From: Candidatus Eiseniibacteriota bacterium
Lineage (GTDB): Bacteria > Eisenbacteria > RBG-16-71-46 > SZUA-252
Direction: 5' to 3'
Assembly (NCBI GenBank): GCA_003235575.1
Contig: QJVW01000115.1
Span: 12,290 to 76,289 of the forward strand
DNA: 64,000 nucleotides
Shown: piece by piece, positions 8,253 through 41,369 of the stretch
How the letters are laid out: the number at the start of each line of letters is the position of its first letter
Numbering within the stretch: the stretch's first letter is position 1
Notes under the pieces: generated by a model
Told to the model about the DNA's origin: nothing
The model's input: the letters and a program-made list of their open reading frames with translations, nothing else
Database searches by the model: none
Program-made: the position numbers and the translations under genes

Positions 8253-8287
8253 GGTGCGCGGAGGATAGCACCCTGGCGTCTGCGGTA

Positions 8288-8367
8288 GGCGTGAGGGCGC
8301 GATGAAGGGTTTCGGGGTCCGACAGCGACAGCCATGCCCCCGAAACCCTTCATCGCGCCCTCACGCC
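8288..8367. repeat. Perfect 30-bp inverted repeat (GGCGTGAGGGCGCGATGAAGGGTTTCGGGG ... CCCCGAAACCCTTCATCGCGCCCTCACGCC) separated by a roughly 20-nt loop
   Basis: Read directly from the sequence in the 283-bp spacer between the REC gene stop (8536) and the priA start (8252). The stem is much longer than an intrinsic terminator stem and has no flanking T-tract. Confidence 0.8.
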
Positions 8368-8535
8368 GGCATCGGTGGAGCGACTATTCCGGACACTCGG
8401 ACGCTCCACGACGCCCGTGACGGGAGGAGAATTGTCCCTGCAGGCGATTGTCTGCCGTCGTTAGAGCCGGCGGGGACAATTCTTCTCACGTCCCGCGCGG
8501 GACGTTGGATTGGCTGACGAGGATTGCGGCGGGAA

Positions 8536-8964
8536 CTACGAGGAGGGCGTGGAGCGCTCCGACACCGTCTGTCCCAGGATGGCGTTGATCCGCTCGACCA
8601 GCTTGCGGGGACTGAACGGCTTCGTGATGTAGTCGTCGGCGCCGACGTCAAAGCCCATCTTCTGGTCGACGTTCCTTCCCTTCGCGGAGAGCAGGATCAC
8701 GGGGACGTTTCGCGTTTCCGGGTTCGACTTGACCGCGCGGCAGACTTCGTAGCCGTCCAGCTTCGGCATCATGATGTCGAGGACGATCAGGTCGGGCTTG
8801 TCGCTGCGCACGCGCTCCAGGGCCTGCTCGCCGTCGAGGGCGGTCAGCACTTCGTAGCCTTCCATCCCCAGGCTGAAGTCGAGAATGTGGACGATGTAGA
8901 TTTCGTCGTCCACGACGAGAATCCGCCCCTTCGACATCGGCTCTCCTCCCGGTACGTGTGCCAT
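8536..8964 (-). CDS. Stand-alone response-regulator receiver domain protein (CheY-like), probably starting at the internal MSKGRILVVDD (about 8937)
   Basis: RILVVDDEIYIVHILDFSL...DLIVLDIMMPKLDGYEVCRAVK...VPVILLSAKG...GADDYITKPF are canonical REC motifs (DD, D, T, K). No output domain. Confidence 0.9.
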   Translation of the reverse strand: MAHVPGGEPMSKGRILVVDDEIYIVHILDFSLGMEGYEVLTALDGEQALERVRSDKPDLIVLDIMMPKLDGYEVCRAVKSNPETRNVPVILLSAKGRNVDQKMGFDVGADDYITKPFSPRKLVERINAILGQTVSERSTPSS

Positions 8965-8972
8965 ACCGATAT

Positions 8973-11564
8973 CTATCGGCCCGCTCCGGATGCTTCTGGA
9001 GTCGGAAACGGTGGCCGATCTTGTTGCGGCACAATCAGTTCAACAAGCGTCGCCACCACGGCCTCATCGAACTGCGTCCCGCTGTGGCACCGCAGTTCCG
9101 CCACCGCCTCCTCGTGGCTGATCGGCTGGCGGTACGGCCGCCCCAGCGTCATCGATTCGTAGGCGTCGACGACGGCGATGATCCGTGCGCCCAAGGGAAT
9201 CTGATCGCCGCGCAATCCGCGCGGATAGCCGCGGCCGTCGATACGCTCGTGGTGCGCCAGAATGATTTCGGTCACGTTGGAGTGGAACTCGATCGGTTTC
9301 AGCAATTCGACGCCGCGGGCCGGATGTTCCGCCACGTGCGCCCAGGTATCGGGATCCAGCTCGCCCGGCTCGTGGAGGATGCCCGGCGATACGTGCGCCA
9401 TGCCGACGTCGTGGATTCGGGCCGCGTACGCCAGCACCGAGAGGTCCTGTTCGTTCATGCCCATCTTCCGGCCGATCGCCGTCGCGCGCTCCGCCATCGA
9501 GCCGCCCGTCAGGCGCAGGCGGCTTCGGCGGGTGTGGTCGATGATGGCCGCCAGCGCGTGGGAGGCCTGCTCCGCCCGGTCGGCGGACGCCTCGTGCGCC
9601 GAGGCATGTTCCCAGGCGCGCGCGACCCGATCCGCCAGCGACGTCAGGAGCGCCTCGTCGTCCTGCGTGAACGGGGTGCAGGAGATCTTGTTGTTGATGT
9701 TGATGACGCCCACGACCCGCTCATCCACCTTCACCGGGACGGACAGGAGCGACTTCGTTTCGTACTGGTTGTGGTTTCGTCGTCCGAACCGCTCGTCGTC
9801 TTCGATGTTGGTGATCAGGAGCGGCTGGCCGTGCTTGGCCACCCATCCCGCGATCGAATCGCCGACACGGATCCGCGTGCCGCAAACCACCTCTTCGCGC
9901 AGTCCGCGCGCGGCCTTGATGTAGAGCTCCTCCCGCTCGTCGTCGAGGAGCATGAACGACGCGATCTGGGCGTCCATCACTTCGGCGACCATCTCGACCG
10001 TGAGACGGGTCAGGTGATCGGACACCGAACGCGTCGGGGACCATGTCGCGTGGGTGATCACGTTGGCGTCGCTGGGCGTGGCCGGCAGGGAGACGTGGAA
10101 GCGGGAGCCGTGCCCCGGCTCGCTTTCCGCCGTGATCTCGCCCCCGTGCCACTCGACGATGCTCTTCGCGATCGAAAGCCCGAGCCCGACACCGGGGTAC
10201 TCGCGCGACAGCGAGCCGTCCACCTGGTAGAAGCGGTCGAACACCTTGGCCAGCTCACTCTGCGGAATGCCGATGCCGGTGTCCTCGACCGTCAGGCGCA
10301 CGGTGCTTCCCTCGCCCGCCACGCGGAACGTCGCCGTCCCGCCGCGCGGGGTGAACGTCACCGCGTTCGTTCCCAGGTTCTGCAGCAGCCGGCGAATCAG
10401 ATTCCGGTCCGCCTCGACGATCACCTCCGAGACGTCGATCGCCGCGACGAGCTGGATTCCCTTCGATTCCGCCTGGGGCTTGAGGATCGCGATCTCCTCC
10501 TCGACCAGATCGACCAGGTTCAAGGGCTCGCGGCTCATGCGGAAGCGTCCCGACTCGAGCCGCGTCAGTTCGAGGATCGCCTCGATGAGGCGGGTCAATT
10601 TCCGGGTCTGCTCGTCGATCACGCCCAGGAAGTCGCGCTGCATCGCGGTGTTCTTCGAACCAACGTGCTGTTGCAGCGCCTCGACGTACGCGTGAATGTG
10701 CGTCAGCGGGGTCTTCAACTCGTGCGAGACGGTGGAGACGAACTTGGACTTCATTTCGTTCAGCTCCTCCGCGCGCTCCGTCGCCTCCTCCAGCTGGCCC
10801 ATGCTCTCCTGCAGCCGCTGGACGAGGGCCGCGTTTTCGAGGGCGACCACCGCGTGGGTCGCCAGGATCTCGATCATCTCGACGACCTCGCGCGTGGGAA
10901 GCTTTCGGTCGGCGGGGTCGTCCACCGAGAGATACCCGATCACGGCGCCGTCCTTGCCCGACAGCGGCACGATCAGCACATCCTCTTGGTGCCACTCGCC
11001 GTCGCGCCGGACGCCGAGGTCGGGCGTCCAGCTGTGCGGGTCGTTCTCCCCCCAGAACTTGTGCTCGTGTGGGATGAAGTAGGAGCGGCCGATGCGGAAT
11101 TCCTCGCGCAGCCACGATTCGAACTCGGACGCCGGGACGTCGTAGTTCTCGAGCGCCGTGATCGCGTCGCGCTCCAGCCCCGCGAAGGCCCGCGCCTCGT
11201 AGGTTCCACTTCGAACGTTCAGCACGCGAAGCAGGACGATGCGGTAGCCGACCGCGGAGGTCACGGCGTGCACGATTTCGTGCAGCACCCGATCCAGGCC
11301 CAGGTTCGAGCTGATGGATGTTGCGATTTCCAACACCTTCTGGAGCCTGGTCGCGCGCTGCCGGCTGGTGAGGAGTTGGTCGCGGTAGAGACGCCCCATC
11401 TCCTCGGCGGCCAGCGACAGCTGCTCGTTGCGCTGCATCGCGGCGTCCAGCGAGCCGCGCAGGCGCCGCGCTTCGCGCATGGCGGTCCGACGGCGGCGGA
11501 CGGCCTCGAAGAGAAGGAGCGCCGCGGCCGCGAGCGCCCAGGAGAGCGCGTGGCCGGTCGTCAT
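8973..11564 (-). CDS. Hybrid sensor: TM-GAF-HisKA-HATPase_c-GAF-HD-GYP (histidine kinase fused to a c-di-GMP phosphodiesterase-type domain), paralog 1
   Basis: N-terminal TM segment; H-box VSTVSHELKTPLTHI; N-box RRLLQNLGTNAVTFT; G1 VEDTGIGIP; G2 GVGLGLSIAKSIVEWHGGEI; two GAF-like regions; C-terminal HD-GYP (RIHDVGM ... ILAHHERIDGRGYPRGLRGDQIPLGARIIAVVDAYESM). Confidence 0.9.
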   Translation of the reverse strand: MTTGHALSWALAAAALLLFEAVRRRRTAMREARRLRGSLDAAMQRNEQLSLAAEEMGRLYRDQLLTSRQRATRLQKVLEIATSISSNLGLDRVLHEIVHAVTSAVGYRIVLLRVLNVRSGTYEARAFAGLERDAITALENYDVPASEFESWLREEFRIGRSYFIPHEHKFWGENDPHSWTPDLGVRRDGEWHQEDVLIVPLSGKDGAVIGYLSVDDPADRKLPTREVVEMIEILATHAVVALENAALVQRLQESMGQLEEATERAEELNEMKSKFVSTVSHELKTPLTHIHAYVEALQQHVGSKNTAMQRDFLGVIDEQTRKLTRLIEAILELTRLESGRFRMSREPLNLVDLVEEEIAILKPQAESKGIQLVAAIDVSEVIVEADRNLIRRLLQNLGTNAVTFTPRGGTATFRVAGEGSTVRLTVEDTGIGIPQSELAKVFDRFYQVDGSLSREYPGVGLGLSIAKSIVEWHGGEITAESEPGHGSRFHVSLPATPSDANVITHATWSPTRSVSDHLTRLTVEMVAEVMDAQIASFMLLDDEREELYIKAARGLREEVVCGTRIRVGDSIAGWVAKHGQPLLITNIEDDERFGRRNHNQYETKSLLSVPVKVDERVVGVININNKISCTPFTQDDEALLTSLADRVARAWEHASAHEASADRAEQASHALAAIIDHTRRSRLRLTGGSMAERATAIGRKMGMNEQDLSVLAYAARIHDVGMAHVSPGILHEPGELDPDTWAHVAEHPARGVELLKPIEFHSNVTEIILAHHERIDGRGYPRGLRGDQIPLGARIIAVVDAYESMTLGRPYRQPISHEEAVAELRCHSGTQFDEAVVATLVELIVPQQDRPPFPTPEASGAGR

Positions 11565-13948
11565 GGCGTCACGCCCTCCGTGCGCCCGGTCGGGCGCGCG
11601 GCGCCGGTCGACGGCGGGCGCGCGTCCCCGGCCTCGTCCAGCGCGGCCGCCAGCGCTTCGACGACGTTCGGATCGAACTGCGTCCCGGAGGCGCGGCGGA
11701 GTTCCGCCAGCGCTTCGGCGTCGGAGACGGGATCGCGGTACGGACGTCCCGCGGTCAGCGCCTCGAAGGCATCGACGGCGGCGAGGATGCGCGCCGCCAG
11801 GGGGATTTCCTCCCCGCGCAAGCCGCGTGGATATCCCTCGCCGTCCATCCGCTCGTGATGGGCCAAGATGATCTCGTGCACCTTGGGCGCCGACTCCAAC
11901 GGACGCAGCAGCCGGATGCTCGATTGGGGATGGCTTTCCACGTCACGGCGCTCCCGCTCGCTCCACACCTGGCTGCTGCACCAGGGCGCATTCTCCAAGG
12001 TGAGCATGCCCACGTCGTGCACGCGCGCGATGTAGCCGAGGATGGCGATCTCGTCCTCGGGCAGGGACAGGCGGCGCGCCACGTCGGTGGCCAGCTTGAA
12101 CGAGCGGCGCGTGTTGGGAATCAGCCGCTGACGGCGCGCCCGGATCACCGCCCGGAGGCTGGAGAGGGTCGCGGCGATGTCCGCCTCGGTCGGCTGATGG
12201 TGCAGACGCTCCAGCGCGGCCGAGACGCGCGCCACGATCGCGACCAGCAGCCGGAGGTCGTCCTCGTCGAACGGCAGCCCGTCGGACTTGTTGTTCACGT
12301 TGACGACGCCGACCGTCTCCCCGGCGATGAGGATCGGCGCGGCCAGCAGCGATTTCGTCTCGTACTGCGGGTGGCTCATCTTCCGGAATCGCCGGCTGCT
12401 CTCGATGTCCCGGACCAACAGCGGTTCACCGTGGTGCGCCACCCAGCCCGCGATGGAATCCCCGACGCGCACCTGCGTCCGGGCCACGGTGTCGGGGTCG
12501 AGGCCGTGCGCCGCTTGGACCCGAAGGCTCGTGCCGGTCTCGTCGAGGAACATGAAGGACACAATTCCCGCGTCCATGACCTCGGCGACCATGGTGACGC
12601 ACTGCTGCAGCACGTTCCGGCGCTCCGGCTGAACGAAGAGCGGCTCCAGCGAGCGAATGAGCCTGAGGAAGCCGTGCTGATGGAGCGGCAGTTCGAAGAC
12701 GAACCGCGTTCCTCGGCCGACCTCGCTCTCGACGTGGATCGCGCCTCCATGCAGCTCGACCACGCTCTTCACGATCGCGAGTCCTAGCCCGGTCCCCTCG
12801 GTCCGCGCCCCACCGCCGTCCTCCACGCGGTAGAAGCGCTCGAAGACGTGGGGCAGCTTTTCGGTCGGAATGCCGTGGCCCTGGTCCTCCACCTCGAAGC
12901 GCGCCTGGTCGCCATGCATGGCGACACGCACGAAGATCTCGCGATCCTCCGGCGAGAACTTCGCGGCGTTATGGAGCAGGTTCACGAACACCTGCTTCAG
13001 GAGATCGAAGTCCGCTTCTACCGGCGGCAGGTCGTCCGAGACGGTCACGCGCAGCTGGAGCCGCTTCTGTTGCAGCGTGGGCTCCACCGTGAGGCGCGCG
13101 TCCTCGACGACCGCGGGGATCCCGAGGGGCTCGACGCGAAGACGGCGCCGGCCGGAGTCCATCCGGCTCAAGTCGAGCACATCGTTCACCATGCGGGTGA
13201 GACGGTCCGCCTCTTCATTGATGACGGAGAGGAACTTCTCCTGCATGTCGAAGGACGGCCGACCCAGGTTGTCGAGCAGCGATTCCGTGTAGGCCTTGAT
13301 CGCGGTGAGCGGCGTCCGCATCTCGTGCGAGACGACGGAGATGAGATCCGACTTCGTCTGGTCCATGCGCCGGAGCGCGAGTCGCGCCTCGTCCAGGCTG
13401 CGCGCGGACGCGTGGAGTTCCTCGCGCACGCGAAGGCGATCGACCGCCATGCCGATTTGATCGGCCAGGAACAGTAGGGTGCGGCGGCGGCGGCTGGTCA
13501 CCGGGCGGGCGCGCCGATACCCGACCACCGTCAGGCCCAGGAGGGTCGTGCCGATCCGGAGGGGCATTCCGACCAGCGTCGCGGGGGCGTCCCCGCTCCA
13601 TCCGATCTCGTCGGGTCCCGCCCGCGACGCGTCGGACGCTTCGTGCGCGAGAAACGTCTCGTGGCGAAGCACCTGCCCCAGAAATCCGTCCTGATCGGGC
13701 ACCAGGAGCACGCGGCGCCCGCCCGCGCGATCGCGTTCGTACGCGTAGCCCTCCAGATCGCCCGACTCGTCGTTCAGCAGGAGCAGCGCGAACTGGTCGG
13801 CGCCGGCGATGTCGAGGACGTGCTCCGCCAGGGCGTGAAAGACGGTGTCGGGATCCGTGGCGGCCTGAAGCGCGAAGGAGAGGCTGCCCAGCCGATCAAG
13901 AACGCGGAACGGCGTCGCGGTGCCGCGCGGCGCGTCAGACCCATTCAT
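11561..13948 (-). CDS. Hybrid sensor: GAF-HisKA-HATPase_c-GAF-HD-GYP, paralog 2 (tandem duplicate of the previous gene)
   Basis: H-box VVSHEMRTPLTAI; G1 VEDQGHGIP; G2 GTGLGLAIVKSVVELHGGAI; second GAF; HD-GYP (RVHDVGM ... ILAHHERMDGEGYPRGLRGEEIPLAARILAAVDAFEALT). Its stop overlaps the downstream paralog's start by 4 nt. Confidence 0.9.
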   Translation of the reverse strand: MNGSDAPRGTATPFRVLDRLGSLSFALQAATDPDTVFHALAEHVLDIAGADQFALLLLNDESGDLEGYAYERDRAGGRRVLLVPDQDGFLGQVLRHETFLAHEASDASRAGPDEIGWSGDAPATLVGMPLRIGTTLLGLTVVGYRRARPVTSRRRRTLLFLADQIGMAVDRLRVREELHASARSLDEARLALRRMDQTKSDLISVVSHEMRTPLTAIKAYTESLLDNLGRPSFDMQEKFLSVINEEADRLTRMVNDVLDLSRMDSGRRRLRVEPLGIPAVVEDARLTVEPTLQQKRLQLRVTVSDDLPPVEADFDLLKQVFVNLLHNAAKFSPEDREIFVRVAMHGDQARFEVEDQGHGIPTEKLPHVFERFYRVEDGGGARTEGTGLGLAIVKSVVELHGGAIHVESEVGRGTRFVFELPLHQHGFLRLIRSLEPLFVQPERRNVLQQCVTMVAEVMDAGIVSFMFLDETGTSLRVQAAHGLDPDTVARTQVRVGDSIAGWVAHHGEPLLVRDIESSRRFRKMSHPQYETKSLLAAPILIAGETVGVVNVNNKSDGLPFDEDDLRLLVAIVARVSAALERLHHQPTEADIAATLSSLRAVIRARRQRLIPNTRRSFKLATDVARRLSLPEDEIAILGYIARVHDVGMLTLENAPWCSSQVWSERERRDVESHPQSSIRLLRPLESAPKVHEIILAHHERMDGEGYPRGLRGEEIPLAARILAAVDAFEALTAGRPYRDPVSDAEALAELRRASGTQFDPNVVEALAAALDEAGDARPPSTGAARPTGRTEGVTP

Positions 13949-14955
13949 GCGCGTGGCTCCGTGCGATGCGATTCCCTTGCCGGACCGACAAGCGTCCCGT
14001 CCGACCGGCGATCCGGCACGATGCAGCTGCCGTGGATGGCTTTTCCCAGCTTCTTGAGTTCCCTGACGATGTCGTTGACCTGCGCGCTGTGCTGGATGTC
14101 GCGGCCGACGTTCGTCACGACGGGGATCGTCACCGAGAGAAGACCGAAGTTCTTCACCCCACCCTGACGGTTCGAGAGCACCGTGATGAACCCGCGCTCG
14201 GCGTCTTCCGGGTCGTACTGACTCGCAATGTTGCTGTCGAACTCGCGCTTCACGCAGTCGGCCACCAGGCCCGCCCGATCCGGGACGGTCATGATCACGA
14301 AATCGTCGCCGCCGATGTGGCCGACGAAGTCCCCTCCTCCACCGACCTTCTCCACGGCTCGGCCCAGGAGCTCCGCCGTGAATTGGATCAGCGCATCGCC
14401 CCGTGCGTATCCGTAGTAGTCATTGAACGCCTTGAAATTGTCGAGATCGATATGGAGAAAGGCGAACTTCTCACCCGCTCCGATGCGCCGCGTCAGTTCG
14501 TTTTCGATGAGCACGTTTCCGGGAAGGCCGGTCAGCGCGTTCGACGAGAGCAGCGCGCGGCGGCTCCGGAGCTGGTTGCGAACGCGAAACAGGACCTCCT
14601 CGTTCGCGAACGGTTTGGTCACGTAGTCGTCCCCGAACGCGTTCAGTCCCTCGAGGCGCTCCTCCAGCGATGATCTGGCCGTGAGGAAGATCACGGGAAT
14701 GCGGCTGGTCAGGGGGTTCGCCTTCAGGCGGCGGCAGACTTCGTACCCATCCATGCGCGGCATCGCCACGTCGAGCAGGATGAGATCGGGGGGATCGCGT
14801 CGAACCTCCTCCAGCGCGCTCAGTCCGTCGGCGGCGGTGCGAACGTCGTAGTTCGCGTCCGCCGCTCCGCGCAGTGCCTGCTCCAAGAGGAGGCGAATGT
14901 GCAACTCGTCCTCCACCACCAGAATGCGCCCGCGATCAGCCGGCTGCTCGCTCAC
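13945..14955 (-). CDS. Response regulator REC-GGDEF (diguanylate-cyclase-type domain with the variant motif GGDDF), with a likely GTG start at about 14955
   Basis: REC: RILVVEDELHIRLL...DLILLDVAMPRMDGYEVCRRLK...DDYVTKPF. GGDEF domain: FLHIDLDNFKAFNDYYGYARGD...GHIGGDDFVIM. The track ORF extends to 15201 through an Arg-rich implausible N-terminus. No RxxD I-site precedes GGDDF. Confidence 0.8.
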   Translation of the reverse strand: MSEQPADRGRILVVEDELHIRLLLEQALRGAADANYDVRTAADGLSALEEVRRDPPDLILLDVAMPRMDGYEVCRRLKANPLTSRIPVIFLTARSSLEERLEGLNAFGDDYVTKPFANEEVLFRVRNQLRSRRALLSSNALTGLPGNVLIENELTRRIGAGEKFAFLHIDLDNFKAFNDYYGYARGDALIQFTAELLGRAVEKVGGGGDFVGHIGGDDFVIMTVPDRAGLVADCVKREFDSNIASQYDPEDAERGFITVLSNRQGGVKNFGLLSVTIPVVTNVGRDIQHSAQVNDIVRELKKLGKAIHGSCIVPDRRSDGTLVGPARESHRTEPRA

Positions 14956-15119: not shown

Positions 15120-16133
15120 CTAGGCGTGGGGAAAGGCGTCGAGGTTCGGAACGACCGACGCCGTCACGGGCGTGACGATGCCGCGACGCCGCGCGTGCCA
15201 CCCGGCGAAGGCGATCATCGCGCCGTTGTCACGGCAAAGGGCCGGCGAGGGAAATACGGCGGGGATGCCGCGTTCGCCCGCGAGCCGGCCGGCCTCGCGG
15301 CGAAGCAAGGTGTTGCAGGCGCAGCCGCCGGCGATGGCGATCGCCTTCGAGGGGTGTCGGTCGAGCGCGAGCGCCAGGCGCTCGATCAGCGCGTTCACCA
15401 CCGCGCGCTCCGTGGCGGCAGCCACATCGCGAATTCGCCCCTCGGACATCGGGCTCTTCTCCCGTTCCACCGCGAGTTTCACGGCGGTCTTGAGCCCGCT
15501 GAAGCTGACGTCCAGGTTGTCGTTGCCGAGCCGCGCCACCGGAAACGCGAACGCGTCGGGGTTTCCCTCGCGCGCGAGCCGGTCGACGTGCGGACCGCCG
15601 GGATACGGCAGGCCGAGCAGCTTCCCGACCTTGTCGAACGCCTCGCCGGCGGCGTCGTCGCGCGTCGATCCCAGGCGCCGGACGGATGCCGCATCCGTGA
15701 CGTGGTAGATCTCGGTATGTCCGCCCGATGCGACCATCCCCAGATATGGAAACGGCAGGTCCTGCTCGATGCCGGGCGAAAGAAGATGCGCCTCGACGTG
15801 GTTCACGCCGACGAAGGGTATGCCGCGCGCTTGGGCGAAGCCCTTCGCGAATTCGAGCCCGACGAGGAGCGAACCGACCAACCCCGGCCCGATCGTCGCG
15901 GCCACGGCGTCGATCGCGGCGATGGGGCGATCCGCCTTCGCGAAGACCTCGGCGATCACGCGAGGAAGGAGCGTCAGATGGGCGCGCGAAGCGAACTCGG
16001 GCACGACGCCGCCGTATTCGAGGTGGATGTCCTGCGAGGCGACGACGTGCGCGAGCAGCCGGCCATCTTCCACGATGCCGGCGGCGGTGTCGTCACAGGA
16101 GGTTTCGATCCCGAGGATGAGCATGGGTATCAA
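15120..16133 (-). CDS. tsaD: tRNA N6-adenosine threonylcarbamoyltransferase TsaD (Kae1/Gcp family)
   Basis: MIPMLILGIETSCDDTAAGIV...HVEAHLL...GGCACNTLLR; metal-binding HxxH and ASKH-fold motifs. TTG start. Confidence 0.9.
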   Translation of the reverse strand: MIPMLILGIETSCDDTAAGIVEDGRLLAHVVASQDIHLEYGGVVPEFASRAHLTLLPRVIAEVFAKADRPIAAIDAVAATIGPGLVGSLLVGLEFAKGFAQARGIPFVGVNHVEAHLLSPGIEQDLPFPYLGMVASGGHTEIYHVTDAASVRRLGSTRDDAAGEAFDKVGKLLGLPYPGGPHVDRLAREGNPDAFAFPVARLGNDNLDVSFSGLKTAVKLAVEREKSPMSEGRIRDVAAATERAVVNALIERLALALDRHPSKAIAIAGGCACNTLLRREAGRLAGERGIPAVFPSPALCRDNGAMIAFAGWHARRRGIVTPVTASVVPNLDAFPHA

Positions 16134-17303: not shown

Positions 17304-18752
<1,449 letters not shown>

Positions 18753-19604
18753 TTACTTGAGCGCCTCGGCGCCTGCCACGATCTCGACGAGTTCGCGGGT
18801 GATCGTGGCTTGCCGGGTCCGATTCATGTGCAGGGTCAGGTTCTGGATCATTTCGTTCGCGTTCTTCGTCGCCGATCCCATCGCCACCATGCGCGCGCCG
18901 TGCTCCGACGCCGCCGATTCGGCCATCGCCATGTAGAGGCGCATGGCCAGGACGTAGGGGACGAGCCGCTCGAGGATCACCTCCGGCGACGGCTCGTACA
19001 GGTAGTCGCGGGAGACCGCCGGTCCCGTCGCCGTCCGCCCCATCGGAAGGTACGGCTCGACCACGATCGTGCGATTCAGCGCGCTCTTGAAATGCGTGTA
19101 GACGAGGTCCACTTCATCGATCTCGCCGGCCTCGAAGCGCTCCGCCAGCGTGCGGCTCATCTCCTCCGCGAATTTCCACGAGGCCACGCCGCCCATCGAC
19201 GTGTTCGAGGCGAGGATGGTGGCCTTCCGTCGGCGGAAGTAGTCGTATCCCTTCTTGCCGATCAGCACCATCGAGGTAGGCACAGACGCCTCGCGTACGA
19301 TGCCCTCGACCATCTTGTTCAGGTTCACGTTGAAGGCGCCGCAAAGGCCGCGATCCGACGTGACGTGCACGATCGCACGGCGCTTCACGTCCCGGCGCGC
19401 GAACGCCGGGTGCATGATCTCTCCCGACGCGTTGGCCAGGTTCCCCAGCACCTCGCGCAGCTGCTCGCCGTACGGGCGCGCGGACTCCACGGCGGTCTGG
19501 GCGCGGCGCAACTTCGCCGCGGAGACCATCTCCATGGTCTTCGTGATCTGGGCCGTGCTCGCTACGGAGCGGATCCGGCGCCGGATGTCGCGAAGGGTCG
19601 CCAC
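18753..19604 (-). CDS. atpG: F1 ATP synthase gamma subunit
   Basis: MATLRDIRRRIRSVASTAQITKTMEMVSAAKLRRAQ; canonical gamma N- and C-terminal helices. Confidence 0.95.
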   Translation of the reverse strand: MATLRDIRRRIRSVASTAQITKTMEMVSAAKLRRAQTAVESARPYGEQLREVLGNLANASGEIMHPAFARRDVKRRAIVHVTSDRGLCGAFNVNLNKMVEGIVREASVPTSMVLIGKKGYDYFRRRKATILASNTSMGGVASWKFAEEMSRTLAERFEAGEIDEVDLVYTHFKSALNRTIVVEPYLPMGRTATGPAVSRDYLYEPSPEVILERLVPYVLAMRLYMAMAESAASEHGARMVAMGSATKNANEMIQNLTLHMNRTRQATITRELVEIVAGAEALK

Positions 19605-19608
19605 GTCG

Positions 19609-21129
19609 CTAGGCCATTCCCTTCTTCACGAAGGCGGCCTTGAACTGCTCCACGGCCTTCTTCAGCTTCGCCTCGATCGCGTCGGTCATTTCGTACTTGG
19701 CGCGGATGTCGTGCATCATGTCGCCGAATTCCTCGTCGAGGAACGCGAAGAAGCCGGTCTCGAACGCCCGGACCGAGGTCGTCGGCAGATCGTCGAGGTA
19801 GCCGTTCGTTCCGGCGTAGATGATGGCGACCTGTCGCTCCACCGACATCGGCTGGTATTGCCCCTGCTTCAGGAGTTCCACCATGCGCTCTCCGCGCGTC
19901 AGCTGCGCCTGCGTGGCCTTGTCGAGGTCCGAGCCGAACTGCGCGAAGGCCGCCAACTCGCGATACTGCGCGAGGTCGAGCCGGAGGCGTCCGGCGACTT
20001 TCTTCATGGCCTTCGTCTGCGCCTTGCCACCGACGCGCGAAACCGAAATACCGACGTTGATGGCGGGCCGCACGCCCGAGTAGAAGAGGTCGGTTTCCAG
20101 GAAGATCTGCCCGTCCGTGATCGAGATGACGTTCGTCGGAATGTACGCCGACACGTCGCCCGCCTGCGTCTCGATGATCGGAAGCGCGGTCAGCGACCCG
20201 GCGCCCAGCGAATCGTTCAGCTTCGCGGCGCGCTCCAGGAGGCGGGAGTGGAGATAGAACACGTCCCCCGGGAAGGCTTCGCGGCCCGGCGGCCGCCGGA
20301 GCAGCAGCGACAGCTGTCGGTACGACGCGGCGTGCTTCGACAGATCGTCGTAGATCACGAGCGCGTGCCCGCCGCGGTCCCGAACGTCCTCGCCGATGGC
20401 GCAGCCGGTGAAGGGCGCGATGAACTGAAGCGGCGCGGCTTCCGAGGCGCCCGCGTTGACGACCGTCGTGTATTCCATGGCGCCGTGGTCTTCCAGGATC
20501 TTCACGACCTTCGCGATCGTGAAGTCCTTCTGGCCGATGGCCACGTAGATGCAGCGGATGTCCCCGCCCTTCTGGTTGAGGATCGTGTCCACCGCGACCG
20601 CGGTCTTCCCCGTCTGGCGGTCCCCGATGATGAGCTCGCGCTGGCCCCGCCCGATCGGAATCATCGAATCGATGGCCTTCAATCCGGTCTGAACGGGCTG
20701 ATTCACGGGCTGACGATCCACGACGCCCGGAGCGCGGCCTTCGATCGGGTTGTACTTGTCCGTGACGATGGGGCCCTTGCCGTCGATCGGCTGGCCGATC
20801 GCGTTGATCACGCGCCCGGCCATCGCGTCCCCGACGGGCACCGAGGCGAGGCGCCCGGTGCGGCGCACCTCGTCGCCCTGCTTGATCTGTTCGGTGGAGC
20901 CGAAGAGCGCGATCCCGACGTTGTCCTCTTCGAGGTTCAGCACGACGCCGGTGACGTCGCCGGGAAAGAGCACCAACTCGCCGGCCATCGCGTCGTCGAG
21001 GCCCCACACGCGGGCGATCCCGTCGCCCACCTGGAGCACCGTCCCGACGCTCTCCATCTTGAGCCGGGACTCGTACCGCTCGAGCTCCTGCTCCAGTACC
21101 GCGCTGACTTCCTCGGGCTTGAACGCCAT
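19609..21129 (-). CDS. atpA: F1 ATP synthase alpha subunit
   Basis: 506 aa with the P-loop [20 protein letters not shown] and the alpha signature regions. Confidence 0.97.
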
Positions 21130-36292: not shown

Positions 36293-37966
36293 CTAGGACG
36301 TGTGCCCGGCTTCCTCGGGGTCAGCCGCTGTGCGCGGGGGCGCCCAGGGCGCCGTGTTCTTCACGACGGGGATGGTGCCTTTGTTGAGGGCTTCCACGAA
36401 CACGGAGACGACTTCCGGCGCGAACTGGGTTCCCGCCTTCTCGGTCATCTGCGCCACCGCCTGTTCCATGGTGAGCCCGGCGCGATAGGGGCGATCCGTG
36501 GTCATGGCGTCGAATGCATCCGCGACGTTCACGATCTTCGCCGCGAGCGTCATCTCCTCGCCCGTCAACCCATCGGGGTATCCCTTTCCGTCCACCCGCT
36601 CATGGTGGTGACGGATCATGTCGATGCAGCGCTCCAGGAAGCGGACGCCGCGGACCATCTCGGCGCCGCGGACGGGATGCATCTTGACCATCCTCCACTC
36701 CTCGTCGGTCAGCGCACCCGGCTTGTGGAGGACCTTGTCCTCGGTGTGTACCTTTCCGATGTCATGCAGGAAGGCGCCGAATTGGATCCGCTGCACCTCC
36801 TCGGGGTCGAACTCCAGCGCCCGCGCGATGCCCACCGAATAGGCCGCGACGCGCTCGGTATGGCCGTGCGTGTACGGATCCTTCTCTTCGATCCGGGAGA
36901 CGAGCAGCCGGACGGTGGAGACGTAGGCCTCCTGGAGATCCTTGAATAGCCGCGCGTTCTCGATGGCGATGCCGGCCGATTCCGAGAGCGCACGAAGCAT
37001 TTCCAGGTCCGCCGCCTGGAACTCCTGGCCGCTGACCTTCTCCCCGATCGCCAGGACGGCGACCAGCCGGTTCTTCATGATGACCGGCGAGACCAGCGTC
37101 AATCCCGCCGCGTAGAGCTGCCCCACCTCGCGCTCGAACCCGCGGTGGTGCTCCACGGAGGCGAGTCGCACCGGGCGCGGGTCCTCGCTCCCGGGTGCGT
37201 GGAGGGAACGAATGAATTCTCCGTTGTAGTCGAGCACGATCGAGCGCGCCTGCTCCTCCTTCATGCCCTTGAAATTGGAGGCGTCCAGGCGCGTCGGGCT
37301 CTCCCGGTCGTCGGTGAGGAAAAGACAGGCGGCGTTGACGCGCAGCTGGCCCATCACGCTGAGGATCAGCGTTCCCAAGAGGCCTTCGAGATCAAGCGAC
37401 GCGTTGAGCTGGTGCGTCAAGCCCATCAGCGTCTCGAGGCTGTAGACCTGGAACCGAAGCTCCTTGTTCCGGACCAGCAGATCCTCGCGGTTTCGCTGCA
37501 CCTCGGATTCCAGCTCCTGGTTCTTTCCCGCCAGGGCGTCGTGCCGCTCCAGCCGCTCGAAGATGCGACGGACCTTGATGAGCAGTTCCTTGGGAGAGAA
37601 CGGCTTCGTCAGGTAGTCGTCCGCGCCGTGCATCAGCCCCTGCAGCCGCGAGTCGACCTCCGCGCTGGCGGACACCATCACGATCGGGATATGCGCGGTG
37701 TCGCGCGTACTCTTCATCGCGGCGCACACTTCGAATCCCGTCTTCTTCGGCAGACGCAGGTCCAGGATCACGAGATGCGGCGGGGTGCGGCGCACGATCT
37801 CCAGCGCATCCTCCCCCGACATCGCGGTCAGGACGCGGTATCCGTTCTGGGTCAGCGAGATCTGAAGCAGCTCGACAACGCGGCGATCGTCGTCCACGAC
37901 GAGGATGGTCCGCTTTCCTTTCGCAGGACCGGCTTCGGTGGCCGGCCGGAGGCTTTCGGTGCTCAC
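36293..37966 (-). CDS. Response regulator REC-(coiled coil)-GAF-HD-GYP (c-di-GMP phosphodiesterase-type output)
   Basis: REC: TILVVDDDRRVVELLQ...HLVILDLRLPKKTGFEVCAAMK...DDYLTKPF. GAF-like middle region. HD-GYP: FLHDIGKVH ... IRHHHERVDGKGYPDGLTGEEMTLAAKIVNVADAFDAMT. Confidence 0.9.
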   Translation of the reverse strand: MSTESLRPATEAGPAKGKRTILVVDDDRRVVELLQISLTQNGYRVLTAMSGEDALEIVRRTPPHLVILDLRLPKKTGFEVCAAMKSTRDTAHIPIVMVSASAEVDSRLQGLMHGADDYLTKPFSPKELLIKVRRIFERLERHDALAGKNQELESEVQRNREDLLVRNKELRFQVYSLETLMGLTHQLNASLDLEGLLGTLILSVMGQLRVNAACLFLTDDRESPTRLDASNFKGMKEEQARSIVLDYNGEFIRSLHAPGSEDPRPVRLASVEHHRGFEREVGQLYAAGLTLVSPVIMKNRLVAVLAIGEKVSGQEFQAADLEMLRALSESAGIAIENARLFKDLQEAYVSTVRLLVSRIEEKDPYTHGHTERVAAYSVGIARALEFDPEEVQRIQFGAFLHDIGKVHTEDKVLHKPGALTDEEWRMVKMHPVRGAEMVRGVRFLERCIDMIRHHHERVDGKGYPDGLTGEEMTLAAKIVNVADAFDAMTTDRPYRAGLTMEQAVAQMTEKAGTQFAPEVVSVFVEALNKGTIPVVKNTAPWAPPRTAADPEEAGHTS

Positions 37967-39666
37967 GAGTTGGTCTCCATGGAAACGGACGTATGGTTTC
38001 CGGTCGCGTCGCGCGCGCCGGCGTGCTGGTCGGAATCGCGGGTCTCGGCGGCGTGACCGCCGTCCGGAATGGTCGCGCCGGCGCCCAGGGGGTCGAGCAC
38101 GGCCCGATCCACGGCATGACCGGAGGCGCGCTCGGCGGCGGCGGCCGACGCCTGTTCGGCCCGGAGGCGGGAACGGCGCTCGGTCTTCTCCAGCACGCCC
38201 AGGAACACCTCCACCATCGAGGGATCGAACGGGGCGCCCCAGTTTTCCGAGATGACCTGTCGCGCCTTGTCGCGCGGCAGGGCCCGCCGATAGGGCCGTT
38301 CGCTGGTCATCGCGACGTACGCGTCGACCAGGGAGACGATGCGGGCGCCGAGGGGAATGTCCTGCCCCTTCAGGCCCGACGGATAGCCCTCGCCGCCCCA
38401 GCGCTCATGGTGATTGCGCACGACCTCCACGACCTCGGGCGAGAAGTCCATCTCCTCGAGGATCTGCGCACCACGCGCCGGATGTTGCTTGATCAGCGAC
38501 CACTCCTCCGCGGAGAGATGCGCCGGATTCTTGAGGATGAGATGACTGACCGCCAGCATGCCGATGTCGCGGAGTGCCGCCCCGTAGATCAACGCCTTCA
38601 CGTCGGCGCGGGGCACTTGGAGGAGCCGCGCCATGGCGGTGACCAGGCGCACCACGCGCTCGGTGGATCCCTTCGCATACACGTCGCGGCTTTCGATGAG
38701 GGACATCATGCCCCGCACCACGCCCAGATTTCGATCTTCCATCTGGCGATGGAACCGGGCATTGGCGATCGCGACGGCGGCCTGGTGCGCCAGAATCGTG
38801 AGCAGGTCCCGCTCGTCCTCCTGGAAACCGCGGTCTCCGCCGCGCGCGCCCAGGAAGAGCATGCCGATCAGTTCGCGACGCACCCACAAGGCGACGCCCC
38901 ATTCGAGTCCGGAGGCGCGGAGCGTGCGCGCGGCGCCCGCGGCGTCGGGGAGCGCCTCGGCTCCGACCATCGGCTCCGCGGCCGCCGTGGGCGCCAGCGC
39001 CAGGGCGTCCTCGAGGGTCGTGAACGTGTCGGCCTCCGCCATGGCCGCGATCGAAGCCGCCGACAGTTTCGTGTCGCGGAATTGGTCCCGCGCGAATCCA
39101 CGAACCTGGCGGGGGATGAGAACGCCCTCGCGGTCCGGGTCGTCGAGAAAGAGCGCCAGGCGCTCGACGCCGAATTGGCCCATGACCGAGAGCCCGAAGA
39201 GGTTGAGCACCTCATCCAGATCGTGGGCGAGGTTCAGCGCCTGCGTGATCTCGAAGAGATTTCTGAACTCGACGATCTTCAGGCGCAGCTTGGTTTGCAG
39301 CGCGGCGTGCTCCGCCACGCTCGGCCCGCCGGGCGGAACCGACGCTTCCTCCGTGGGGGAGTTCGAGGCGTAGATCTGCGCGCCCGATTCGAGGAGCGCC
39401 TCGCGGACGCCGCCGCGAATCCCCCGGACGATGATCCGCCGGGCCGCGCCTTCGTAGGCGCGCGCTTGCCGCTGGATCACGGACACGGCGAGCGCGGAGA
39501 CGTCGCTGACCTCGTCGAAGTCGAGGTGCACTTCCCGCGCGTCCCGGGCCAGACATTGAACCAGGAGTTGATCGAGCGCGCGTGCGCCCGCGGCGTCGAC
39601 GACCCCCCGGAGCGAGAACCGGAACTCGTCGCGCGGTTCGCCGCGGACGAGGTGAAGGCCCTTCAA
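37963..39666 (-). CDS. STAS (anti-sigma-antagonist-like)-GAF-HD-GYP protein; probable TTG start overlapping the upstream stop (TTGA)
   Basis: STAS: LKGLHLVRGEPRDEFRFSLRGVVDAAGARALDQLLVQCLA...EVHLDFDEVSDVSALAVSVI...RIIVRGIRGGVREALLESG. GAF region. HD-GYP: AALRDIGMLAV ... VRNHHERWGGEGYPSGLKGQDIPLGARIVSLVDAYVAMT. The track ORF extends to 40500 through roughly 270 aa of Arg/Gly-rich sequence that overlaps the upstream gene and is implausible. Confidence 0.75.
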   Translation of the reverse strand: MKGLHLVRGEPRDEFRFSLRGVVDAAGARALDQLLVQCLARDAREVHLDFDEVSDVSALAVSVIQRQARAYEGAARRIIVRGIRGGVREALLESGAQIYASNSPTEEASVPPGGPSVAEHAALQTKLRLKIVEFRNLFEITQALNLAHDLDEVLNLFGLSVMGQFGVERLALFLDDPDREGVLIPRQVRGFARDQFRDTKLSAASIAAMAEADTFTTLEDALALAPTAAAEPMVGAEALPDAAGAARTLRASGLEWGVALWVRRELIGMLFLGARGGDRGFQEDERDLLTILAHQAAVAIANARFHRQMEDRNLGVVRGMMSLIESRDVYAKGSTERVVRLVTAMARLLQVPRADVKALIYGAALRDIGMLAVSHLILKNPAHLSAEEWSLIKQHPARGAQILEEMDFSPEVVEVVRNHHERWGGEGYPSGLKGQDIPLGARIVSLVDAYVAMTSERPYRRALPRDKARQVISENWGAPFDPSMVEVFLGVLEKTERRSRLRAEQASAAAAERASGHAVDRAVLDPLGAGATIPDGGHAAETRDSDQHAGARDATGNHTSVSMETNS

Positions 39667-41369
39667 GCGTCCGCTCCTGCCGCCGGCGCGGCGGCGCCGA
39701 TGGCGTCCGGCGTTCCCAGGAGGCGGAGACGGCGCATGACGGCCGCCGGGTGGAGCACCAGCGTCACTTGGTTGTCGACCCCCACGATACCGCCCAGAAC
39801 CTCCTCGACCGGGTAGAGCCGCGGTGGAAGGGGGGAGAGCCGCGCATTCTCGCGCCAGACGATACGGTCGAAGCCCACCGCGCCGGTCTCCTTGCCGGAG
39901 CGAAGGATCGCCAGCGGGCCGTCGGCCGGTTGCGGCGGCGAATCGTCCGCCTGCCCCGGACCGAACAGCGACGCGAGGGGCACGACCCTGGCGCCACCTC
40001 CCCCTCCCGACCAGACCAACTCCTCGCGGGAAGCGTGGATTCGTTCGATGGCGCTCCACGGGAGCGCGATCCGCTGTCCCGAGACTTCGACGATGAGAAA
40101 ACCCCGCAGCGAACGCGCCATGGGAAACTGCATGTGCACGACCGAGGTCCCGGGCTTCCCGCCCTGATGCGTGACGAAGCCGCCTAGCTCTTCGAGCGCG
40201 GATTCCAGCCGCGCGATGGATTCCGAATCGAAGGCGACGCGGCCCTCGATCGCCAACCTCGCCTCCAAGCCCTCGCGCGCGGCGGTGACGCGAAGCTGGC
40301 GCGACGTCTCCCCTTCCGGAGATTCGGCCGTTTCCAGAACGCGATAGATCGACGGCAGGAGCATCGATCCGATTTCGGGCTCGAAGCCGACGCCGCCCGT
40401 GTGCACCGTCAGGACGCTTCGCCGCTCCGCCGTGTCGCGGCGGGCCGCGGCGGCGTAGATCTCGTCCACGAATCGGTCCAGCGGATCCAGGAATTCCCAC
40501 AGCAGGTGTTCATCCAAGTCGCGCGCCCGACGTTCCAGCGAGTACTGAACGCCCAGCAGTTGATGGATGTCGTGGGACAGCGAACGCATCCCGGTCGCGA
40601 CCTCCTCCAGGGTCTGATGCACCTCGATGGCCCGGGCCGTGACGTTTTGGCGGCGCGCGGGCGACGGTTCCGCCGGACCGCGACCGCTCGACGCAGTCTC
40701 GCCGGGAGCCAGACGGTCGGGATCGATGGCCTTCATGAACTGGTCCCACTCCGCCAGCACCCGCTGGACGGATCGGAGCATCGCGCCCAACCCCTCGCTG
40801 ATCGAGCCCATGCGGTCGTTCTGGCTGACGAGCGAGGACTTGATCTCAAAGGTCAGCGCGAGCAGGTTCTCCCGCGGCGCCATGTCCGGCGTCGCCTCGT
40901 CGATCACCCCGCGCGACGCGTTCAGCGCCTGCGCCTTCGCGCGGCTCAGCGAGGAACGCAGGTTGTCGATGGCGTCCCCGACGGAGGAAGCGTGGGCGAG
41001 CAGGGCGGCGAAGCCTTCGGTTCGCAATTGCTGCGCCAGGCGATCCTGCGCCTCGAGCGCCACGCGGCAATGCGCCACCAGCGTCTCGCGCTCCTCGGGG
41101 CGCACGTTGCCGAGCCGCACGAGGCTCTCCTGCAGCTCGCGCGCCAGGGACGCCACGCTCCCGATATCGAGCCAATCCGCGCTTCGCTCCACGAGCCGCA
41201 CGGAGAGTTCGACGATGGGGCCGAGTTCGTGCGATCCGAGATCGGGCTCCTCCGTGTCGAGGAAGGTGCGCACGATGTCGATCTCCTCGCGCATGAGCGC
41301 GCTGAACGTCGCGCTCAACCGAGACATGATTTGCTCGTTGCTGAGGTGTTCCGAAGCGGCGGTGCGCAT
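39663..41369 (-). CDS. CheA-like scaffold protein with degenerate Hpt and ATPase domains (no phospho-acceptor His, no N/G1/G2 boxes) and an intact C-terminal CheW-like domain
   Basis: The P1-like region ELSVRLVERSADWLDIGSVASLAREL aligns with FRVFHTIKGTCGFFGF of the canonical cheA in this window but has E/R where the His should be. The P4-like EFLDPLDRFVDEIYAAAARR lacks the N-box Asn/His, and SVLTVHTGGVGF replaces the DxGxG motif. ...GTSVVHMQFPMARSLRGFLIVEV then the CheW domain (IALPWSAIERI...GPLAILRSGKETGAVGFDRIV). Confidence 0.75.
   Translation of the reverse strand: MRTAASEHLSNEQIMSRLSATFSALMREEIDIVRTFLDTEEPDLGSHELGPIVELSVRLVERSADWLDIGSVASLARELQESLVRLGNVRPEERETLVAHCRVALEAQDRLAQQLRTEGFAALLAHASSVGDAIDNLRSSLSRAKAQALNASRGVIDEATPDMAPRENLLALTFEIKSSLVSQNDRMGSISEGLGAMLRSVQRVLAEWDQFMKAIDPDRLAPGETASSGRGPAEPSPARRQNVTARAIEVHQTLEEVATGMRSLSHDIHQLLGVQYSLERRARDLDEHLLWEFLDPLDRFVDEIYAAAARRDTAERRSVLTVHTGGVGFEPEIGSMLLPSIYRVLETAESPEGETSRQLRVTAAREGLEARLAIEGRVAFDSESIARLESALEELGGFVTHQGGKPGTSVVHMQFPMARSLRGFLIVEVSGQRIALPWSAIERIHASREELVWSGGGGGARVVPLASLFGPGQADDSPPQPADGPLAILRSGKETGAVGFDRIVWRENARLSPLPPRLYPVEEVLGGIVGVDNQVTLVLHPAAVMRRLRLLGTPDAIGAAAPAAGADA

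Follow-up and report, generated by a model that had tools for sequence, protein, structure and literature searches.

Among the closest described systems to the one treated here are three phosphorylation-activated response regulators with a GGDEF output domain: DgcR (Leptospira), WspR (Pseudomonas) and PleD (Caulobacter). Our subject is a response regulator encoded on the minus strand, at positions 13945–14955, of a stretch of 64 000 nucleotides from a Candidatus Eiseniibacteriota bacterium (contig QJVW01000115.1; hereafter the window, with positions counted from its first letter). The window protein shares with these three regulators the receiver (REC) domain, the helical linker, the GGDEF fold and the metal and guanine ligands, but it has none of their GG(D/E)EF motif, DxLT…NRR turn, R-x-GG arginine, RxxD inhibitory site (I-site) and heptad-register linker. 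Its own motif reads GGDDF.

The role of the fourth residue of this motif is disputed. Hallberg et al. (PMC6456294) describe it as a cross-dimer general base, which bears out the importance that an initial annotation of the window had attached to it; a second cross-dimer residue, an Arg in 94% of cyclases, stacks on the guanine of the opposite site (PMC6456294). Teixeira et al. (PMC8041772) argue instead that the fourth residue binds the second metal, M2; they identify the cross-dimer Arg as DgcR R147, five residues past the Thr of D139-x-L-T142, and also name H187 and Y286 as cross-subunit contacts. In the Hypr enzymes, which have a Ser at the guanine-recognising position (PleD D344), loss of the cross-dimer Arg shifts the product specificity.

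In the literature, GGDDF is mentioned for PA3258, Bordetella DdpB and a Streptomyces protein. PA3258 is described as an orthologue of the Pseudomonas fluorescens phosphodiesterase RapA and is itself mainly a phosphodiesterase; with the EAL domain disabled, an apparent, indirectly detected cyclase activity is reported for it, and its phenotypes are those of cyclic di-GMP (c-di-GMP). Activity of a GGDDF enzyme was first shown, in a fusion construct, for the Geobacter Hypr GGDEF protein GSU1937, which makes cyclic GMP–AMP (cGAMP; PMC8835794). It can be likened to the window protein by its motif alone: GSU1937 has a transmembrane input and a Ser at the guanine-recognising position, where the window protein has D187. 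DVU2067, a conserved REC-GGDEF protein of Desulfovibrio vulgaris with ‘very low’ cyclase activity, is a possible relative. Finally, Teixeira et al. set apart a class of small Rec-GGDEF proteins as ‘Group 0’: their turn is (S/N)PLT where others have DxLT, their linker is off the seven-residue ladder, and their activation mechanism is ‘probably’ different. This is one sentence with no functional data, and the searchable text of the paper makes no mention of GGDDF, loss of R147 or an insertion for this group (PMC8041772).

The GGDDF signature and its distribution

The regulator gene is laid out as follows.

13945–14955, minus strand: gene for the REC-GGDDF response regulator, 336 amino acids with a GTG start (open reading frame translation, Pfam)
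14584–14925, minus strand: receiver domain, residues 11–124 (Pfam Response_reg, E = 1.3e-27)
14548–14604, minus strand: extended α5/linker helix, residues 118–136 (AlphaFold2 secondary structure)
14005–14541, minus strand: GGDEF-fold output domain of the HxGGDDF subfamily, residues 139–317
14515–14541, minus strand: N-terminal turn N139-A-L-T-G-L-P-G-N147 (alignments to PleD and to a canonical GGEEF domain; family motif counts)
14395–14448, minus strand: substrate/metal block D170-L-D-N-F-K175-A-F-N178-D-Y-Y-G-Y-A-R-G-D187 (HMMER alignment to PleD)
14299–14313, minus strand: motif G215-G-D217-D218-F219, with H213-I before it (translation; 120/120 and 141/149 homologues)
14140–14217, minus strand: subfamily-specific insertion, approximately residues 247–272 (spacing, conservation, extra strands in the AlphaFold2 model)
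14041–14055, minus strand: K301-K-L-G-K305 on the predicted helix α4 (invariant in the family)

The initial annotation had described a REC-GGDEF regulator with the motif HIGGDDFVIM and no RxxD before it, and this description holds. Pfam finds both Response_reg and GGDEF; in the minus-strand translation HIGGDDFVI is encoded at 14293–14319, with an Asp as fourth motif residue and thus outside the canonical [G/A/S]G[D/E]E[F/Y]; and the I-site position reads G206-G-G-D209, with no RxxD five residues before the motif in either the translation or the alignments. The interval that had been suggested for finding the motif, 14150–14250, was misplaced: it translates to KREFDSNIASQYDPEDAERGFITVLSNRQGGVK, which belongs to the downstream insertion. 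The GTG start at 14955 gives the protein the length of its homologues (336–342 amino acids) and has a Shine–Dalgarno-like GGGGGA stretch upstream, while an alternative, longer reading frame to 15201 would collide with tsaD (15120–16133).

A homologue search of 5.8 billion proteins gave 7921 matches. The best 120 of these were examined; they are 60–100% identical and about 336 amino acids long, and every one of the 120 carries GGDDF. A scan of one genome per species, which included the pattern HIGGDDFV and therefore selects for the motif, found relatives in at least 593 genomes, in metagenome-assembled genomes (MAGs) labelled Eisenbacteria, Krumholzibacteriota, Latescibacteria, Omnitrophota, Planctomycetia, Actinomycetota/Acidimicrobiia, Elusimicrobia, Clostridia, Calditrichaceae and others; the phylum labels of the nearest named relatives, which are also MAGs, are inconsistent. 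As a pattern-free control, the domain alone was searched with phmmer against 1.84 billion representatives, which gave 538 clusters at E ≤ 1e-30. GGDDF is found in 141 of the best 149 representatives of this control, nearly always after H-x, and the rare variants (HIVGDDF, HVAGDDF, HVGGDDY and HIGGEDF) mostly retain the two acidic residues. The counts in the pattern-free search and among the close homologues put the motif far from chance. On this sequence evidence, GGDDF is not a private degeneration: it is the fixed and normal signature of a large subfamily that spans phyla and is under strong purifying selection. A low-activity degenerate cyclase, one of the options put forward in the initial annotation, is therefore not the default reading. 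The subfamily is an ancient, distinct branch of the GGDEF-fold domains, and the window gene is typical of it. A GGDEF domain without GG(D/E)EF is usually called inactive by annotation rules and reviews; here GGDDF is a fixed trait, found in 538 representative clusters and in the genomes of at least 593 species, often in housekeeping neighbourhoods. The subfamily is large and almost unstudied, having been touched by the literature only in passing: with incomplete literature coverage, we found no paper that describes its combined signature, its missing cross-subunit Arg, its insertion or how widely it occurs.

Among annotated plasmid records, a search at the protein level matched a Pseudomonas aeruginosa ‘bifunctional diguanylate cyclase/phosphodiesterase’ (locus L083, NZ_CP137508.1, 1792–3540) with the layout EAL-CBS-GGDDF, whose gene adjoins that of a carboxy-terminal processing peptidase. 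This protein is PA3258: the four polymorphic positions reported for it all fit when shifted by −19, and A221 fits without a shift. We also take its neighbourhood, on a 96-kb ‘plasmid’ record with chromosomal genes, to be that of PA3258 on the PAO1 map (the PA3257–PA3262 region). The C-terminal domain of PA3258 carries the signatures ANPLTLLPGN, DIDSFKPFNDLYGYARGD, DFVGHIGGDDF, NRHG and EAKRQAK and has no RxxD; it is 37% identical to the window domain over 85% of the domain and belongs to the same subfamily. It differs from the window protein in its input, EAL-CBS and not REC, and it has no kinase or HD-GYP neighbours. As a side observation, the PA3258 labels in PMC9394441 appear to be swapped, as the ‘GGDEF’ residues 112 and 166 lie in the N-terminal EAL half and the ‘EAL’ residues 456 and 535 lie in the C-terminal GGDDF domain.

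Residues kept and residues changed

The receiver has the expected phosphorylation pocket, namely the acidic pair E15/D16, the phospho-acceptor D62 (codon at 14770–14772), T92, Y111 and K114-P115, and these residues are invariant among the homologues. In the output domain, the Pfam GGDEF profile (PF00990) matches residues 140–222 (E = 8e-15, 55.4 bits against a cut-off of 23.8) and spans only model positions 5–87 of 161. The whole GGDEF fold is found (β1-α1-α2-β2-β3-α3-β4-α4-β5, with the motif on the β2–β3 hairpin). The closest structural matches of the regulator are DgcR, WspR and PleD, and all of the output-domain fold matches listed are GGDEF domains. More specific assignments were rejected: the equivalogs of PleD (NCBIfam NF007135; 143.7 bits against a cut-off of 474) and DgcR (NF047654; 64.7 bits against 500) fall short, and a Cas10/mCpol palm domain, at which ‘GGDD’ hints, has no profile match and no Cas10 among the fold matches listed. 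Hypr/cGAMP synthases need a Ser or Thr at the PleD D344 position, where D187 is an Asp that is invariant in the family.

The initial annotation had proposed an alignment to PleD, and this shows conserved counterparts of its metal, guanine and transition-state ligands together with the Asp at the fourth position and the missing RxxD. By HMMER, D170 corresponds to the metal ligand D327, K175 to K332, N178 to N335, D187 to the guanine ligand D344, and D217/D218 to E370/E371; the metal ligands (D170 and D217), the guanine-binding Asn and Asp (N178 and D187) and the Lys (K175) of canonical cyclases are all in place. Among 83 cross-phylum sequences, the invariant residues include D170, D172, F174, K175, D179, G186, D187, G215, G216, D217, D218 and F219, and N178 is at least 85% conserved.

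Other positions are changed throughout the family. The canonical turn DxLT-x-L-x-NRR is replaced by (S/N)(P/A)LT-x-LPGN (NALT in 108, NPLT in 49 and SPLT in 42 family members), in which the invariant N147 occupies the place of the cross-subunit Arg (R147 in DgcR, R537 in IsPadC). The His of the canonical GH pair has become Tyr or Phe, with Y183 in the window protein as the equivalent of DgcR H187; the canonical Arg two residues ahead of GG has become His (H213); and no Arg is found at the I-site position across the family sequences. From GG to the α4 Lys there are 86 residues, compared with 70–72 in canonical domains. The insertion, with about 15 extra residues, holds D251, G255 and R263 (‘SNRQGG’), which are invariant or nearly so. 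K301 and K305 may be the counterparts of the PleD phosphate ligands K442 and R446, going by their spacing and helix position only.

The within-subunit substrate ligands are thus kept, while the proposed cross-dimer residues have all changed together. Judged by its residues, the window protein is not a broken cyclase but a coherent alternative version of the GGDEF active site. Since the Glu-to-Asp change is coupled with the loss of the cross-subunit Arg, the GGDDF family is a natural experiment on the disputed fourth residue.

The family also has the marks of Group 0: the NALT/NPLT/SPLT turn, a constant linker (exactly 25 residues from the KP motif to (S/N)(P/A)LT in 201 of 202 members) and a length of 336 amino acids in the window protein (below 360). 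It matches Group 0 as identified by motif and linker only, and the present analysis provides a sequence definition and a genomic context for this class.

Proposed function and its rivals

Domain architectures were taken from Pfam for the 89 longer ones of the 149 representatives. The partners of the GGDDF domain are REC (42), HAMP (30), EAL (16), CBS (13) and HisKA/HATPase (six), with 4HB_MCP, Cache, HD-GYP and MshEN in a few cases each; GGDDF domains occupy positions that are typical of canonical cyclases, behind REC, HAMP, Cache or 4HB_MCP. In a metagenomic protein from Dehalococcoidia (P0262), REC-GGDDF is fused to HisKA-HATPase-HD-GYP, as if the window regulator and the kinase gene that follows it had been joined, which supports a functional link between the regulator and the kinase/HD-GYP protein. 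Two proteins carry both domain types: P0141 is PAS-GGDEF-EAL-CBS-GGDDF and P0154 is REC-GGDDF-GGEEF, the canonical domain of the latter having an RxxD. This suggests that the canonical and GGDDF domains in these proteins are not redundant.

We favour, with a probability of roughly 0.6, the reading that the window gene encodes a c-di-GMP synthase that is activated by phosphorylation and not inhibited by its product, with kinase-borne HD-GYP domains acting against it. The GAF domains of the two hybrid kinases of its operon would detect a cytoplasmic ligand, and the kinases would phosphorylate D62. Dimerization of the receivers would then juxtapose two GTP-loaded GGDDF domains, and two GTP would be condensed to c-di-GMP. 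The competent dimer would have a geometry unlike that of canonical cyclases, because every proposed cross-dimer residue is replaced, and synthesis would escape product feedback, because an RxxD site is lacking. The opposing hydrolysis would come from the HD-GYP domains that the kinases carry, and a stand-alone REC encoded in the same operon would compete for phosphoryl groups. This reading is supported by the fixed signatures, the kept PleD ligands, the cyclase-like architectures, the P0262 fusion, the conserved operon, GSU1937 and PA3258. The initial annotation had looked to fully active GGDDF enzymes among close homologues as the evidence that would count against its low-activity reading; GSU1937 is active and PA3258 apparently so, but both are distant from the window protein.

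Several points weigh against a synthase. Published work describes the fourth motif residue as essential, as E-to-Q kills GacA and WspR mutagenesis shows the same requirement (PMC6456294), and the Asp side chain is one methylene shorter than that of Glu. An Asn stands in for the cross-subunit Arg of 94% of cyclases, and a His for the Arg that precedes GG. For the C-terminal half of the domain, the HMMER alignments to PDB entries and those from hhalign both end just past the motif, so that the phosphate ligands are assigned only tentatively. Screens in P. aeruginosa gave no phenotype for PA3258, and its cyclase activity is known only as a phenotype in a heterologous host. Lastly, the conservation of the GTP ligands would be expected equally of a pure GTP sensor.

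That the domain binds GTP and is catalytically silent, or nearly so, with the regulator acting by protein contacts, we consider somewhat unlikely. Depending on phosphorylation and GTP load, such a regulator might control the kinase or HD-GYP activity of its neighbours, in the manner of CC3396, whose GEDEF domain activates its EAL domain. The change of both proposed cross-dimer catalytic residues (D218 and N147) would fit this role, as would the mainly phosphodiesterase nature of PA3258 and its lack of a cyclase phenotype in P. aeruginosa, the EAL domain alongside GGDDF in 16 of the 89 architectures and the physical coupling of the window gene to HD-GYP proteins. However, most family members are REC-GGDDF or HAMP-GGDDF proteins in which GGDDF is the sole output domain, and most phyla lack an HD-GYP or EAL neighbour. 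Binding alone would not need K175 and the carboxylate at position 4, yet these are almost always kept, and both the apparent cyclase activity of PA3258 and the activity of GSU1937 speak against silence. GTP binding alone is what we retain of the c-di-GMP/GTP-binding regulator put forward in the initial annotation.

It is unlikely, in our view, that HxGGDDF proteins make up a separate mechanistic class, with another dimer geometry brought about by D218, N147, H213 and the R263 insertion, a switch other than a register shift and maybe another product. If this were true, a widespread, often single-copy and syntenic regulator of poorly studied phyla would represent a new signalling output.

An active cyclase or nucleotidyl transferase with a different product or chemistry (a linear pppGpG-type molecule, another linkage or a mixed dinucleotide), owing to the rebuilt dimer interface, linker and insertion, appears quite unlikely. 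Its case is built on co-ordinated changes, throughout the family, of all residues proposed to contact the substrate of the other subunit (R to N147, H to Y/F183, E to D218, R to H213), on the insertion of about 15 residues with its invariant D251 and R263, on the off-register linker, predicted by Teixeira et al. (PMC8041772) to mean a different activation mechanism, and on the Hypr enzymes, in which the same Arg is lost and product specificity shifts. Yet guanine recognition by N178 and D187 is canonical, whereas Hypr enzymes have a Ser at the D187 position; the fusions to EAL, HD-GYP and MshEN are to c-di-GMP signalling domains; and the phenotypes of PA3258 are c-di-GMP ones.

A c-di-GMP receptor binding at an inhibitory-type site, like PelD or the degenerate GGDEF effectors, might be read into the non-canonical motif and the nearby c-di-GMP phosphodiesterase domains, but it is highly improbable, as RxxD is absent here (GGGD) and family-wide and the active site is strictly conserved, unlike that of effector-type degenerate domains.

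If the window protein and its relatives are active c-di-GMP synthases, as we favour, the capacity for c-di-GMP synthesis would be under-counted in Eisenbacteria-type lineages, Omnitrophota, Acidimicrobiia, Clostridia and others, as well as in PA3258/RapA.

Operon and genomic neighbourhood

The gene order on the minus strand is the atp operon, tsaD, a gap of 164 nucleotides, the REC-GGDDF regulator, kinase 1, kinase 2, the stand-alone REC, two hairpins, priA, a TPR protein and rho. The neighbours of the regulator are as follows.

11561–13948, minus strand: hybrid sensor kinase 1, 795 amino acids, GAF-HisKA-HATPase-GAF-HD-GYP (Pfam); 4-bp overlap with the regulator gene
8973–11564, minus strand: hybrid sensor kinase 2, 863 amino acids (Pfam); 4-bp overlap with kinase 1
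8536–8964, minus strand: stand-alone receiver, open reading frame of 142 amino acids (Pfam Response_reg, E = 2.9e-30)
15120–16133, minus strand: tsaD, the upstream neighbour (Pfam TsaD, E = 3.7e-84), 164 nucleotides from the regulator gene; given for context only

The initial annotation had the regulator open an operon of HD-GYP proteins. The HD-GYP motifs of both partners are indeed intact, but the partners are hybrid histidine kinases, and a fourth gene, for a stand-alone REC, follows them. Kinase 1 has the H-box SHEMRTP and the HD-GYP motif HHERMDGEGYP, and the same gene lies downstream of the regulator in relatives. Kinase 2 has a hydrophobic N-terminus and a GAF-like region before HisKA-HATPase-GAF-HD-GYP, with the motifs SHELKTP and HHERIDGRGYP. 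The two kinases are paralogues in tandem. Their HD-GYP domains match the HD_5 profile (E = 9e-35 and 3e-34) and share the intact HD and HHExxDGxGYP motifs with RpfG-type phosphodiesterases, but what precedes them is a complete histidine kinase with a GAF domain, not a REC. A term search of an HD-GYP domain survey did not find such a histidine kinase–HD-GYP fusion. The homologues of the stand-alone REC have 133 amino acids, so its start is probably the second Met (about position 8937). This REC is 80–86% identical in related loci, compared with 45–68% for the GGDDF regulator there, and it has the same position in two of them (L001 and L002). Read from their domains, the regulator, the hybrid kinases and the stand-alone REC make up a complete two-component and c-di-GMP turnover module.

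The order regulator–kinase 1–kinase 2, with its 4-bp overlaps, is conserved in relatives, and in 20 loci the regulator is preceded by tsaD. Elsewhere the setting changes. In Omnitrophota/Planctomycetia (17 loci), the regulator is found downstream of a FIST_N/FIST_C sensor protein and a plain histidine kinase (FIST-type loci L034, L037–L045, L051, L052, L056, L060, L070, L074–L076 and L080). In Acidimicrobiia/Actinomycetota (11–17 loci), it lies between rpe and ribD with no kinase adjacent, in the block priA-def-fmt-rpe-[regulator]-ribD-ribE-ribBA-ribH-…-infC-rplT, of which ribE, ribBA, ribH, infC and rplT were recognized by eye only (housekeeping-block loci L050, L058, L061–L064, L066, L071, L077, L081 and L082); this position points to long-term vertical inheritance. 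The link to HD-GYP is thus lineage-specific, and the core function of the family is therefore independent of HD-GYP. Tandem REC-GGDDF copies, one with HIGGDDF and one with HVGGDDF, were seen in some Actinomycetota MAGs (L017, L018 and L021).

Rfam finds no riboswitch or other known RNA in the 164-nucleotide leader or the operon (E ≤ 1), and the fold of this leader is unremarkable (z = −0.46). A scan for σ70 promoters and terminators gave nothing above chance and does not distinguish an operon-opening regulator gene from read-through from tsaD. Between the stand-alone REC gene and priA, at 8253–8540, there are two long hairpins (RNA fold z = −8.45), with arms at 8288–8317/8338–8367 (30 nucleotides, perfect) and 8412–8445/8466–8499 (34 nucleotides, 82%) and loops of 20 nucleotides each. 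They may be the terminator of the operon or an element resembling repetitive extragenic palindromes, and there are no further copies in the window.

Very long antisense reading frames, such as 8958–11858 (plus strand, 966 amino acids) and 17391–19643 (plus strand, 750 amino acids), are expected in DNA of 68% G+C and are not genes. No other GGDEF-type reading frame was seen in the window. A third reading frame with an intact HD-GYP motif, HHERVDGKGYP, lies at 36293–37966 on the minus strand, next to an overlapping one of 845 amino acids at 37963–40500.

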